Source: an uncultured virus (IMG/VR IMGVR_UViG_3300017754_003767) (Duplodnaviria > Heunggongvirae > Uroviricota > Caudoviricetes). From it: DNA of 64,000 nt. Shown in pieces: positions 1 through 18,504 of this stretch (positions within the stretch are counted from its first letter, which is position 1; each line of letters begins with the position of its first letter). The translations under genes were made by a program, and so were the position numbers. The notes beneath the pieces are model-generated. The model worked only from the letters and a program-made list of their open reading frames with translations. It was not told where the DNA came from and ran no database searches. Where the stretch lies: IMG/VR virus record IMGVR_UViG_3300017754_003767; one strand, 5' to 3'.

Positions 1-1
1 T

Positions 2-346
2 AAGTTAAGTTGGGATAAATGGGTAGATAACAATAAAGAACATTATCAAAAAGTTAAAAAACAAGGGCAAGATTTATTACATCACAATCACAAAAAATAT
101 GAGCGCAGAGGAATAACAAAAGAACAATACGATATTGTGCTTGAGGCCCAGGAAGGTTTATGCGCAATTTGCCAAGAGCCTCCCAAGGATAAACAATCTT
201 TAGCTATGGACCATAATCATCAAACCAATGAGTTCAGAGGTTTATTGTGCAAAGAGTGCAATAGAGCCCTAGGTTTATTTGGTGATAATATAGATGTATT
301 GACAAACGCAGTCACTTATCTTAAAGAACGAGGAAGTTATGGCTGA
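2..346 (+). CDS. Endonuclease VII-family (HNH-like) homing endonuclease, 5'-truncated by the window edge
   Basis: Frame is open from base 2; motif GITKEQY..L.AQ.G.CAIC...DHNH....RGLLCKECNRALGLFGD. Confidence 0.85.
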   Translation, partial: KLSWDKWVDNNKEHYQKVKKQGQDLLHHNHKKYERRGITKEQYDIVLEAQEGLCAICQEPPKDKQSLAMDHNHQTNEFRGLLCKECNRALGLFGDNIDVLTNAVTYLKERGSYG

Positions 347-647
347 AGACAAAAGCAAGTACACAAAACCAGACTTACGTGAACGTATTAAAAACCGTGT
401 AATGCGCGAAGGTCGTGGCGGAAAACCAGGGGAATGGTCGTAGCCGTGAGGCTAAATAACTTCAGCACGTAAAGCTCAACTTGTAGCACAAGAATATAAG
501 TCGGAGGGTGGCGGATATAAAGGCGGTAAAGGTGAGAAGCAAAAGTCTTTGGAGAAGTGGGGAGAAGAAAAGTGGCAAACCAAAGACGAGTATGAGAAAC
601 GTTCTAAAGCTAAGGCTGCAGCCAAGAGATATAAAGATGGCGAGTGA
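339..647 (+). CDS. DUF5872-like basic protein (N-terminal half), interrupted by a 24-nt in-frame insert at 441-464
   Basis: ATG339 gives MAEDKSKYTKPDLRERIKNRVMREGRGGKPGEWS, then the insert, then in the same frame ARKAQLVAQEYKSEGGGYKGGKGEKQKSLEKWGEEKWQTK...TGA647; missed by the ORF track. Confidence 0.75.
441..464 (+). other. Candidate translational bypass element (stop codon in hairpin, 24 nt)
   Basis: TCG|TAG CCG TGA GGC TAA ATA ACT TCA|GCA; hairpin TAGCC-GTGA-GGCTA; Ser codons at both ends. Confidence 0.65.
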
Positions 648-846
648 TAAAGCAATTCAACCTGGCTACACCAAGCGTTACTTACCGGAAAAAGCATGGG
701 CTTCTTTATCCAAGGAAGAAAGAGAGGAGACTGACCGCAAGAAACGCGCTGGTAGTAGAGAAGGTAAACAGTTTGTACCTAACACAGAGACAGCAAAGAA
801 AGCTGGTAAAGCAGCCCGTGCATCCAAACGTTACAAAGATAAATAA
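637..846 (+). CDS. DUF5872-like protein, C-terminal half encoded as a separate ORF
   Basis: ATG637 overlaps the upstream stop; KRYLPEKAWASLSKEEREETDRKKRAGSREGKQFVPNT motif. Confidence 0.7.
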   Translation: MASDKAIQPGYTKRYLPEKAWASLSKEEREETDRKKRAGSREGKQFVPNTETAKKAGKAARASKRYKDK

Positions 847-879
847 CTCACTTATACTTAATAAAGATTCCTGATTATC

Positions 880-1050
880 ATGGAAAAGAAAAAGGCTATC
901 CCCCCCAAGAAAGCTGTACCGCCCGCAAAAGGCAAAGCTGCTCCCCCTGTCAAAGGCAAAGGTGGCGCATCTGCCAAGCAAACTGAAGCCCGCGACAAGT
1001 TCAAAGAAATGATTGCGAAGAAGAAAGAAGCTGCCGCTAAAAAGAAATAA
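880..1050 (+). CDS. Small Lys/Ala/Pro-rich basic protein (56 aa)
   Basis: MEKKKAIPPKKAVPPAKGK...AAAKKK*; TATACT box upstream. Confidence 0.6.
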   Translation: MEKKKAIPPKKAVPPAKGKAAPPVKGKGGASAKQTEARDKFKEMIAKKKEAAAKKK

Positions 1051-1071
1051 GGTATCGCGCTATACTTTCAG

Positions 1072-1153
1072 TGCTCAATACACACGTCTCGTCCCGTAGG
1101 TATTGGCGGTAAGTAGTTAGTTTTAGTCCTGGTCTGAGCAACCAGGATTTTTT
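1072..1153 (+). ncRNA. Putative small RNA with its own -10 box and intrinsic terminator
   Basis: TATACT at 1061-1066; hairpin CAATAC/GTATTG; terminator TCCTGGT-ctgagca-ACCAGGA followed by a T-tract. Confidence 0.45.
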
Positions 1154-1168
1154 GTGTATAATAAAATT

Positions 1169-1407
1169 GATAGAGATCAGGTCCCTGCTTGCACACCTGA
1201 TCCATCATCGAAGTCCTGGGTTTCCAGGCCGGAGGTTTGATAGCCTTTGCCAGCTTGATTCCCTGGTGCGCCCTCGACCCATTTGGCAAGCGCGACGAAT
1301 CAGTAACACCCCTCATGCCTAGCTTGATAACGAGGACGGCTTTACACCGGGCGCACGGGCTTGCAGGCATCCTCACTTAGTTATCAATGATGCACAAATA
1401 GAGGGGT
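1169..1407 (+). ncRNA. Large structured ncRNA, possibly manA-like
   Basis: TATAAT at 1157-1162; stems GATCAGG/CCTGATC, TTGCCA/TGGCAA, TGATTC/GAATCA, TTGATAAC/GTTATCAA, ACCCCTC/GAGGGGT; no credible ORF; next to tRNA-like genes. Confidence 0.5.
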
Positions 1408-1410
1408 CAC

Positions 1411-1483
1411 TCAACCGGTAGTCCAGTGGCAGGACACCCCGACAAGGGAGTTAGATAGCTGGTTCGATTCCAGCACGGTTGAT
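1411..1483 (+). tRNA. tRNA-like RNA with shrunken anticodon arm (possible GAC/Val remnant)
   Basis: Acceptor TCAACCG/CGGTTGA, D-arm GTCC/GGAC, T-arm GCTGG-TTCGATT-CCAGC; anticodon stem only about 3 bp. Confidence 0.55.
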
Positions 1484-1484
1484 T

Positions 1485-1560
1485 CACCTGGTCCGAGACA
1501 ATTGGATAGTACGGTTACTGCCGCTGCAGGACGATGTAGGTTCGAATCCTACCCAGGTGC
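1485..1560 (+). tRNA. tRNA-like RNA with perfect acceptor and T arms but aberrant D/anticodon region
   Basis: CACCTGG/CCAGGTG; GTAGG-TTCGAAT-CCTAC; no assignable anticodon. Confidence 0.55.
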
Positions 1561-1589
1561 TTTATACTGAGCGCATCTTGGCAAGTTAG

Positions 1590-2222
1590 ATGAGCTACTT
1601 AAATCACAACCTGCCGACATTTACTTGCTACATCCGAAACGAATTCCTATACAACCACAAACAAGGCCATGGTGACGTAACGTTATGCGACGTACACTCA
1701 GTGGCATCCCTGGAAAAACGCGTTCCTTTATTTGAGGTGTTCCTGGAGAATGGTGTTAACTGGACAAGGCGTCCAATCCACGCCCTTTGCTGGAAACCAG
1801 ATGCCCCTAAGCCTGAGCTTAATGAGTGCATGTGGTGGGATTGTTTTTCTCCGTATATTGACGTACAGGTCAGGTCACGCCTTTCAAACTTACGTGCAGA
1901 GCTAATTAATTTCAAAGGTGAGAAGAAGGGTGGCATCTACATGTTTACCCTTGATTGGTCTTGGGAATCTAAATCAACTCTTAATACAAACTTTAGTGAA
2001 ACACCTGAGCACAAGTGTGCACACTTCTTCCGAATGGACGACGGCAATTTTTACGCATACCCCAATAACCGAATCATCTGGTACGACGATGCATGGCTTA
2101 AGAATCGGATTGAAAAAAATCCTGGATACGAGATTGACTTGACTGAGTACAGTGTGGAGAACTCACGGATGATTGAAACGTCCGATCATTTCATATACGA
2201 GACATCCACTACGGACGGCTAA
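1590..2222 (+). CDS. Conserved hypothetical cyanophage protein
   Basis: 210-aa ORF with globular composition; TATACT box upstream. Confidence 0.75.
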   Translation: MSYLNHNLPTFTCYIRNEFLYNHKQGHGDVTLCDVHSVASLEKRVPLFEVFLENGVNWTRRPIHALCWKPDAPKPELNECMWWDCFSPYIDVQVRSRLSNLRAELINFKGEKKGGIYMFTLDWSWESKSTLNTNFSETPEHKCAHFFRMDDGNFYAYPNNRIIWYDDAWLKNRIEKNPGYEIDLTEYSVENSRMIETSDHFIYETSTTDG

Positions 2223-2253
2223 CTGTTTGTTGTTATATTTAAGACAACAATGA

Positions 2254-2511
2254 TTGGCTTTAGTGCCAACTTCTAAAGAAAAACTCCAGCGCAATAGACA
2301 AAAGTTTCTTGAGTACAAGAAGACTTTGAATTGCCAGCACTGTGGACTGAATGATCATCGTGTCCTTGAGTTTCACCACGTTGGTGACAAGGACCATAAC
2401 ATATCAAATATGGTTAACCATGGATACGGCTGGCGCCGCATCGAAGAAGAAATAAAGAAATGTATTCCGCTGTGCTGCAACTGCCATAGGCTTGAGCACT
2501 GGGTTGATTAA
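2254..2511 (+). CDS. Small HNH endonuclease
   Basis: CQHCG...LEFHH...KCIPLCCNCHRLEH. Confidence 0.75.
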   Translation: MALVPTSKEKLQRNRQKFLEYKKTLNCQHCGLNDHRVLEFHHVGDKDHNISNMVNHGYGWRRIEEEIKKCIPLCCNCHRLEHWVD

Positions 2512-2544
2512 TATGCTATGCTATTCATAATTAAAGTTTAAATT

Positions 2545-3000
2545 ATGAAAACATGCCGCCAATGTGGCTTGGTAAAGCCGTTAAAAGATTTTTACAATGA
2601 GCCAAGAGTTAAAGATGGCAAGCAAGCAAGATGCAAGGCATGTCATGGAAAAACAACAGAAAAATACCGCAAAAAAAATCCTGAGCTTTACAGAAAAGCA
2701 AGTTTAAAAAATTGGCATTCTTTGGATGCTGAAAAAAGACAAGCAAGATGGATTAAGCGGTATGGTATTACTGCAAACGATTACAAACAATTACTTGAAA
2801 AACAAGCAAGTGTTTGTAAGATTTGCCAAAAACCTTGTTCTTCTCGTCAGTTTTTGTCAGTAGACCATTGTCACAAAACAGGAAAAGTTAGAGGCTTGCT
2901 TTGCGTCAAGTGCAATACAGCCTTGGGAATGTTAGATGACAATATTCAGCATTTTGAAACTGCAATTGAATATCTCAAGAGTTTCGAAGAGAAGCTTTAA
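2545..3000 (+). CDS. Endonuclease VII-family homing endonuclease
   Basis: N-terminal CxxC..CxxC; RYGIT..Y..LL..Q...CKIC...VDHCH.TGKVRGLLCVKCN.ALG; AT-rich. Confidence 0.88.
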   Translation: MKTCRQCGLVKPLKDFYNEPRVKDGKQARCKACHGKTTEKYRKKNPELYRKASLKNWHSLDAEKRQARWIKRYGITANDYKQLLEKQASVCKICQKPCSSRQFLSVDHCHKTGKVRGLLCVKCNTALGMLDDNIQHFETAIEYLKSFEEKL

Positions 3001-18418: not shown

Positions 18419-18504
18419 TGGTACAGACAGAGAGACTTGAACTCTCACGACCAAAGGTCTACGGATTTTAAGTCCGTTGCGTCTACCTATTCCGCCATGT
18501 CTGC
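18419..18504 (-). tRNA. trnL: tRNA-Leu(UAA), type II, with encoded CCA
   Basis: GCAGACA/TGTCTGT acceptor; ACGGA-CTTAAAA-TCCGT anticodon arm; long variable arm; GAGAG-TTCAAGT-CTCTC; ACCA. Confidence 0.93.

Follow-up and report, generated by a model that had tools for sequence, protein, structure and literature searches.

The closest described system to the locus reported here is the gene 60/MobA cassette of phage T4. As described in PMC5462505, cryo-electron microscopy (cryo-EM) of the T4 take-off complex places a hairpin of ~12 nucleotides (nt), with three G-C pairs, a UUCG loop and the stop codon inside it, in the A site, where it protects against release factor and read-through. In the portions of the account by Manning and Atkins that cover gene-60 homologues (bioRxiv 10.1101/2022.08.31.505936), the gap measures 50 nt in T4 and ~20 nt in an Aeromonas clade, some homologues have GNRA loops, landing codons that differ at the wobble position are read by one tRNA, the gap's 3' portion is AU rich, and the gap outlasts the nuclease; the cassette is called unique there and confined to myovirus topoisomerase genes with MobA. 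The same account mentions the byp elements of Magnusiomyces capitatus mitochondria, non-coding inserts of 27 to 55 nt that ribosomes presumably skip, and for Streptomyces phages candidate short bypasses are described that hinge on the rare UUA codon (PMC10732093). The present locus lies at the start of a 64,000-nt stretch (the window) of the uncultured-virus record IMGVR_UViG_3300017754_003767. Sequence comparisons identify window positions 2 to 464 as the right-hand two thirds of a putative homing element of ~765 nt within a DUF5872 gene, which carries an endonuclease VII-family nuclease and a short coding gap that ribosomes probably hop over.

The window start cuts the nuclease gene, removing about the first 88 of its codons and everything upstream, including a leftover host copy that is described below. 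The remaining open reading frame (ORF; 2 to 346) matches the Pfam family Endonuclease_7 (PF02945) with an E value of 1.3e-23 and 83.1 bits (gathering cut-off, 23.6). Complete copies in relatives encode 201 to 202 amino acids (aa) with a Cys-rich N-terminal part, and the full-length 202-aa nuclease of the relative L011 matches both PF02945 (E, 7.3e-23; 80.7 bits) and phrog_2633, “endonuclease VII” (E, 5.3e-33). The nuclease stop codon TGA (344 to 346) overlaps the ATG (339 to 341) of the DUF5872 gene (ATGGCTGA), and the ORF that starts there closes at a TAG (441 to 443) after 34 codons. Positions 441 to 464 read TAG CCG TGA GGC TAA ATA ACT TCA, which are 24 extra bases with three in-frame stops, and the same frame is open again from 465 for 60 codons, until the TGA at 645 to 647.

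The window product, translated with X at the stops, has 665 homologues at an E value of ≤0.001, the best of which are uninterrupted proteins of 93 to 95 aa. When the window is aligned with 12 homologues, it proves longer by exactly 8 codons, which separate W33 from S-A-R in the invariant G-x-W-S-A-R motif, the most conserved block of the DUF5872 family. The read-through product scores 19.1 bits against DUF5872 (PF19197; gathering cut-off, 27.5); among 120 listed homologues (65 to 78% identity), most have a precomputed PF19197 match and about 20 have none. An AlphaFold2 prediction of the uninterrupted family, with a mean predicted local distance difference test (pLDDT) score of 61.8 and too weak for a fold search, puts the insertion site at the start of the second helix. 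The insert is neither an assembly artefact nor a chance event: inserts of this kind occur on 49 further viral contigs, and a DNA-run contig of a relative spans window positions 342 to 496 without an indel. The initial annotation was thus correct in its coordinates for the overlap of the nuclease stop (346) with the ATG (339) and in placing the insert ~95 nt further on, as the insert begins 95 nt past the nuclease stop. Its description of an endonuclease gene directly upstream of the gapped gene needs revision: the two do abut, but the whole element lies inside the DUF5872 gene rather than in front of an otherwise intact one.

Table 1. Features of the nuclease gene and the interrupted DUF5872 gene in the window.
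Feature	Position	Strand	Remarks
C-terminal 114 codons of endonuclease VII-family (His-Me finger) homing endonuclease	2..346	+	Pfam PF02945
Element-borne replacement copy of DUF5872 codons 1-33 (MAEDKSKYTKPDLRERIKNRVMREGRGGKPGEW)	339..437	+	Start overlaps nuclease stop
Proposed take-off codon TCG (Ser34)	438..440	+	TCG then TAG in 50/50 gap-bearing sequences
Non-coding gap, 21 nt, opening with TAG, also TGA and TAA in frame, 3' part AU rich	441..461	+	
Hairpin TAGCC-GTGA-GGCTA, 5-bp stem including the stop codon, GNRA tetraloop	441..454	+	Minimum-free-energy fold
Proposed landing codon TCA, right end of element	462..464	+	Element-borne
Host-derived DUF5872 3' part, 60 codons (ARKAQLVAQEYK...), and TGA 645-647	465..647	+	Aligns to residues 35-94 of uninterrupted homologues

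Comparison of empty and filled sites in relatives places the ~765-nt element between the Trp33 and Ser34 codons of the 94-codon DUF5872 gene, with the nuclease gene, a replacement copy of the first 33 codons and the gap as its cargo. In the arrangement typified by L011, leftover host codons 1 to 32 with a stop made by the junction are followed by a conserved hairpin leader and the nuclease gene, and then by element-borne codons 1 to 33, the UCG, a gap of 20 to 30 nt, the landing Ser codon and host codons 35 to 94. In BLASTN alignments, the left backbone homology covers the first 32 DUF5872 codons and ends at the TG of the Trp codon, and the right homology resumes at or just past the Ser codon; the flanks join exactly at TG/G-Ser. 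Both junctions are identical in all copies, so the element had a single origin. The codons at 339 to 437 of the window belong to the element, and complete relatives keep a leftover host copy of these codons further upstream. While the element-borne 5' copies are nearly identical in all elements, the leftover host copies vary with the backbone and resemble each backbone's own allele. Some of them are decaying, with a stop and a frameshift in L014, the start lost in L025 and L027, and deletions that leave only a few codons in L008 and none in L004 and L015.

The landing codon also belongs to the element: it is TCG in L023, whereas the gap-less partners of L023, 97% identical to it, show AGT at this position. 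Two codons before the take-off site, every gap-bearing copy encodes Glu (GAR-TGG, E-W), whereas Gln is encoded there in all 57 gap-less loci (CAR-TGG, Q-W) and QWS is found in all 120 listed uninterrupted proteins. This change of Q to E may serve immunity or hopping, or may only mark the origin of the element. At the left end, the conserved leader TTTTGTGCTATWGTAAGAAAAGCACAAAC (L011, 2364 to 2399) occupies the same place in 18 of 23 loci and carries a 6-bp inverted repeat (TGTGCT...AGCACA) just before the nuclease start codon. Expression of the nuclease may be under the control of this leader; at this position, L004 carries another perfect hairpin, which is longer.

The nuclease and the gap were found to be tightly linked among relatives. 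A protein-guided scan of viral contigs yielded at least 251 DUF5872 loci, and among the best 80, which were examined, 23 are interrupted at the site seen in the window and the other 57 have no insert there. A close nuclease homologue that ends 4 nt into the DUF5872 start codon is present in 23/23 of the gap-bearing loci and in 0/57 of the gap-less ones. A scan with the full-length nuclease retrieved 47 loci, including nine new contigs; 40 are of the element type, and the gap is present in all 39 of those that have downstream sequence. A scan for the gap motif in viral contigs retrieved 44 loci, of which 39 are in the DUF5872 gene (17 on new contigs). The other five are unrelated: the letters in L098 fall inside an ordinary ORF in another frame, and L082, L089, L104 and L124 were rejected on their flanks and the absence of matches alone.

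The total gap-bearing set comprises 50 sequences, namely, 49 distinct viral contigs and the window, and the nuclease could be assessed in 47 of them, the others being two contig ends and the window edge. Its ORF is intact in 37 (201 to 202 aa, with one TTG start) and truncated or absent in 10, all of which keep the gap and both gene halves. A pattern scan of metagenomes (14 specified bases) gave 9 matches in this context among the 120 listed, which provide no census, and all 9 have both nuclease and gap. The same hairpin was found neither beside more distant endonuclease VII genes (L165 to L172) nor elsewhere in the window. No gapped gene was found in the cultured-phage collection, where homologues occur only in S-EIVl and Pelagibacter phage HTVC033P; the match in S-EIVl has a length consistent with a gene that is not interrupted. 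The nuclease is never found at the DUF5872 site without the gap, whereas the gap outlives the nuclease.

On L095 (613 to 1180) and L112, the gapped DUF5872 gene stands directly behind an unrelated 98-aa backbone ORF, with neither nuclease nor leftover copy. This arrangement fits a deletion via recombination between the two direct 5' copies, and the 5' segment looks chimeric, with host-like residues followed by the element-type G-E-W-S.

The gaps of the 50 sequences vary in length and sequence around a few constant features. There are 18 distinct gap sequences, and the insert measures 27 nt in 22 cases, 24 nt in 15, 28 nt in 6, 29 nt in 4, 23 nt in 2 and 33 nt in 1. In all 50 sequences, the take-off TCG is directly followed by TAG, and in 49 a TAGCC/GGCTA stem encloses a GNRA loop (GTAA in 31, GTGA in 14, GCAA in 2 and GGGA in 2). 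The landing codon is TCG in 47, TCT in 2 and TCA in the window only. No TC dinucleotide occurs within any of the gaps, and therefore no UCN comes between take-off and the landing codon. The Ser position of the 57 gap-less loci is encoded by TCT (19), AGT (17), TCG (9), TCA (6), AGC (5) or TCC (1), which marks the conservation of TCG as a property of the element. A Shine-Dalgarno (SD)-like AGG is situated at the junction of loop and stem, 10 to 19 nt before the landing codon, and an SD-like RAGG with an AU-rich spacer precedes the landing codon in 49 of 50. In 12 of the 50 sequences, the length of the insert is not divisible by 3, so that the two halves cannot be joined by simple read-through. 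Readings by read-through or frameshift were both ruled out by these frame-changing inserts and because every frame of the gap meets stops or needs a second shift.

Taken with the features above, ribosome hopping offers the best explanation of how the gapped DUF5872 gene is read, and it is probably the correct one. A ribosome would hold peptidyl-tRNA-Ser on the UCG, with the UAG and the hairpin in the A site, release the mRNA, slide past the gap and re-pair at the next UCN codon, giving a product ...GEW-S-ARK... that has only one Ser. A tRNA-Leu(UAA) gene was found in the window at 18419 to 18504 (- strand) but none for a Ser tRNA, and the proposed hop would therefore rely on a Ser tRNA of the host.

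Several observations weigh against hopping. All gap-bearing sequences are metagenomic contigs, and the contigs of three metatranscriptome runs match the window at 92 to 198, 565 to 637, 985 to 1120 and 1207 to 1403, all outside the gap. The hairpin stem never varies among the 49 sequences that have it, and hence covariation lends it no support. In L031 (3100 to 3126; also L149 and L178), the gap TAGCTATAATATTAAATAATT has lost the CC/GG hairpin, yet this element type (L031/L178) has an intact nuclease, with an ORF longer by 8 codons, and intact gene halves; such an element either hops without a hairpin or is a copy that was disabled recently. Two features also depart from T4 gene 60: the SD-like AGG is further from the landing site than the 5 to 7 nt of gene 60, and the take-off codon lies outside the stem. 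Finally, the landing codon of the window is UCA instead of UCG, and the sole contig over this position in the best DNA run, from a relative, has G at 464. A UCA landing codon would still pair with a Ser tRNA of UGA anticodon, although it could lower the efficiency if a tRNA with a CGA anticodon reads the take-off codon.

The gapped gene could instead be dead, broken by the invasion of the nuclease, with the insert as a scar and no full-length protein made. Such a fate would agree with the three in-frame stops in the gap of the window and with the lack of a hairpin in one variant (L031), and DUF5872, a family without known function, could be dispensable. It is nonetheless improbable, given the condition of the two gene halves. 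The element-borne 5' copy is intact in 49/49 assessable sequences and the 3' half is open in 50/50, for 47 to 62 codons, while leftover host 5' copies do decay. The proportions of synonymous (pS) and nonsynonymous (pN) differences, used uncorrected, are 0.54 and 0.098 in the 5' copy (31 unique DNA versions), with a pN/pS of 0.18. The corresponding ratio is 0.16 for the 3' half (23 of 31 unique sequences, one length class) and 0.16 for the nuclease (21 of 22 unique sequences). In a 48-codon subfamily of 13 contigs, 10 of which have frame-shifting gaps, the ratios are 0.24 for the 5' copy and 0.18 for the 3' half. These values, from 0.16 to 0.24, indicate that both gene halves stay open under purifying selection. 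Part, and maybe much, of the diversity of the 3' half predates the insertion, which makes it weaker evidence than the 5' copy and tempers the case for a gene that is still read. A dead gene would also leave unexplained that the take-off, stop and landing triplets are conserved over 18 gap variants and that ten lineages retain the gapped gene after losing the nuclease.

A two-piece product, with termination at the UAG and a second initiation that makes the C-terminal 60 residues separately, is less probable again. The SD-like RAGG and AU-rich spacer would suit re-initiation, as would the ATA or ATT triplets that, in the variants of 24 and 27 nt, stand in frame immediately ahead of the landing codon. 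However, there is no ATG, GTG or TTG between the gap and codon 71, and the 23-, 28- and 29-nt variants have non-near-cognate triplets or a stop in frame before the landing codon. Re-initiation also provides no reason why a Ser codon that matches the take-off codon should be so strictly conserved.

Removal of the gap at the RNA level, by a mini-intron or by a nuclease plus ligase that recognises the hairpin, would be consistent with the conserved hairpin and would be exact, but it is very unlikely. No self-splicing intron of 20 to 30 nt is known to us, and Rfam returned no match at an E value of ≤0.1 for window positions 1 to 3000. Identical Ser codons at both ends, a stop after the first of them and the absence of UCN from the gap are what re-pairing of a tRNA needs, and not what splicing needs. 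Hopping thus remains the preferred reading of the gap.

The element is very probably a mobile nuclease-plus-gap cassette, as suggested by three nearly identical backbones (92 to 98%) that occur with and without it and differ only by one block of ~765 nt. In BLASTN alignments, the gap-bearing L011 is 92% identical to the gap-less L077 over 2.4 kb on the left and 94% on the right; L005 is 97 to 98% identical to the gap-less L060, L063, L065 and L066, and L023 is 97% identical to the gap-less L054, L017 and L018 over about 2.3 kb. Furthermore, elements are 79 to 96% identical between loci whose flanks are about 62 to 78% identical, and L021 and L025 carry different element types in spite of a shared backbone of 92% identity. 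In a tree of host sequences (81 rows and 474 columns, with the element columns left out), the gap state needs at least 14 changes, at least 7 of which are forced by well-supported branches, and the window groups with L011, which has the gap, and with L077 and L061, which do not. Presence or absence at one site in collinear, near-identical genomes, by which homing genes are recognised, is thus seen both in the three backbones and in the tree. L005 departs from its partners more strongly in two stretches than elsewhere, namely, in three codons to the right of the landing codon and in 124 nt to the left of the junction; this pattern fits co-conversion during homing.

The alternative that nuclease and gap are an immobile vertical marker, co-inherited in one clade, draws on the shared junctions and single origin of all copies, and is highly unlikely in view of the interleaving of gap-bearing and gap-less loci in the tree, the gap-less partners of three backbones and the greater likeness of the elements than of their flanks. 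The initial annotation had proposed a mobile endonuclease and bypass cassette, with co-occurrence of endonuclease and insert as the check. The co-occurrence holds in all of the loci described above (23/23 versus 0/57, and no nuclease locus of 39 without the gap), and the mobility is borne out by the near-identical empty and filled sites and by the patchy distribution on the host-sequence tree.

As in T4 gene 60/MobA, a homing nuclease gene is placed within a conserved phage gene; a short segment that codes for the N terminus comes next, and then a non-coding gap. Further likenesses are the matched take-off and landing codons (UCG/UCG in 47, UCG/UCU in 2 and UCG/UCA in 1 of 50), the UAG directly after take-off (50/50), the CC-tetraloop-GG hairpin that includes the stop codon (49/50, with a stem of only 5 bp), the AU-rich 3' gap, the presence/absence polymorphism at one site and the retention of the gap after decay of the nuclease. 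In fact, the T4 record NC_000866 reads GGA TAGCC TTCG GGCTA TC... where gene 60 has its take-off site, so that the five stem pairs UAGCC/GGCUA are letter for letter those of the DUF5872 gap and only the tetraloop differs (UUCG versus GNRA). This shared stem is weak evidence for common descent, because the UAG fixes three of the five pairs, and it is no less likely that the two systems reached this A-site structure by convergence.

The two systems differ in most of their components. The host gene is a 94-aa DUF5872-family gene here and the topoisomerase II large subunit (gene 39/60) in T4. The nuclease has 202 aa and belongs to PF02945, whereas MobA, which is set apart here by its description and not by direct comparison, is an HNH enzyme of 269 to 279 aa; no mobA annotation occurs among the 25 records listed. 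The take-off tRNA is Ser (UCG) instead of Gly or Asp, and the insert measures 23 to 33 nt instead of 50 nt. The N-terminal segment copies the host's own first 33 codons and would restore one whole protein, unlike the gene-60 system, which yields two subunits with novel tails. The hosts of the element are uncultured freshwater phages related to Synechococcus phage S-EIVl and not T4-like myoviruses. With a PF02945 nuclease in place of MobA and a host gene other than topoisomerase, the locus is a separate case, in agreement with the earlier suggestion of an independent version that uses an EndoVII-family nuclease.

Other systems share fewer features with the element. Free-standing phage homing genes of the endonuclease VII/HNH type are likewise small and variably present between syntenic genomes, with PF02945, a DHNH...N motif and Cys pairs, but they lie between genes, whereas the present element is inside a gene with a replacement 5' segment and a coding gap. 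The byp elements are also short non-coding inserts in essential coding sequences; as far as they are described in the source cited above, they differ in spreading like GC-cluster elements without a linked nuclease and in using a non-decodable sense codon. No account of a bypass in a DUF5872 gene, or of a bypass linked to an endonuclease VII-family nuclease, was found in the literature searched, which covered few subscription journals.

By analogy with MobA/gene 60, the nuclease would cut the DNA of naive phages where it codes for GQWSARK without interruption, and DNA that bears the element would be protected from cleavage by the gap, perhaps together with the codon change from Q to E. Since the gap lies in the presumed target and T4 provides a precedent, self-immunity of this kind can be argued, and the chances that it operates here appear evenly balanced. 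The duplicated 5' segment would let the element restore a whole gene instead of two halves.

The DNA downstream of the gapped gene contains further small ORFs of interest. An 85-aa ORF at 2254 to 2511 has Cys pairs and an HNH-like motif, with no Pfam match at an E value of 0.01, and it adjoins a second endonuclease VII-family ORF at 2545 to 3000 (151 aa; PF02945 E, 1.4e-26), the domain of which is 47% identical to that of the first. Since relatives vary in whether and where they carry these two ORFs, both resemble additional free-standing homing genes; neither was seen to have a coding gap beside it. The ORF at 1590 to 2222 (210 aa) matches phrog_3704, “ferredoxin” (E, 2.1e-48), a label that may be unreliable because the ORF has no Pfam match at an E value of 0.01. 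Between positions 1150 and 1590, an ORF-poor stretch follows a terminator-like hairpin with a T-run (about 1125 to 1150). In this stretch, ARAGORN predicts a tRNA of unknown identity with a 2-base anticodon (1411 to 1483), and a second T-arm-like sequence, GGTTCGAATCC, is located near 1540. The contigs of the three metatranscriptome runs (two studies by code) match positions 1207 to 1403 at 90 to 99% and have unrelated sequence before 1207; the Rfam search mentioned above, which included 1150 to 1590, gave no match. The stretch may represent a structured RNA that has escaped recognition, or else an element that is linked to a tRNA and shared with other genomes.

On balance, programmed translational bypassing of high efficiency in phages is likely to have a second natural family in the DUF5872 element, with a different gene, a different homing nuclease and a different tRNA (Ser), and with a T4-like A-site hairpin that was either converged on or inherited. 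A family of independent origin would reveal the features that hopping cannot do without. Both systems have a stop after take-off, a small hairpin of the CC-tetraloop-GG kind, matched codons and an AU-rich spacer, while they differ in the length of the gap, in the nascent peptide, in where the SD-like triplet lies and in the long take-off stem. The natural variants, with gap lengths from 23 to 33 nt, differing loops, landing codons that vary at the wobble position and one form that has no hairpin, would be ready material for reporter and cryo-EM work. The element would also represent a new design of homing element, in which a spare copy of the 5' end of the gene restores the invaded gene whole. 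Similar cassettes are probably under-counted in phage metagenomes, because gene callers split or drop such genes. If the proposed hop is true, the combination of a nuclease and a bypass gap would be a general route for homing elements into the most conserved parts of genes and not an oddity of T4.

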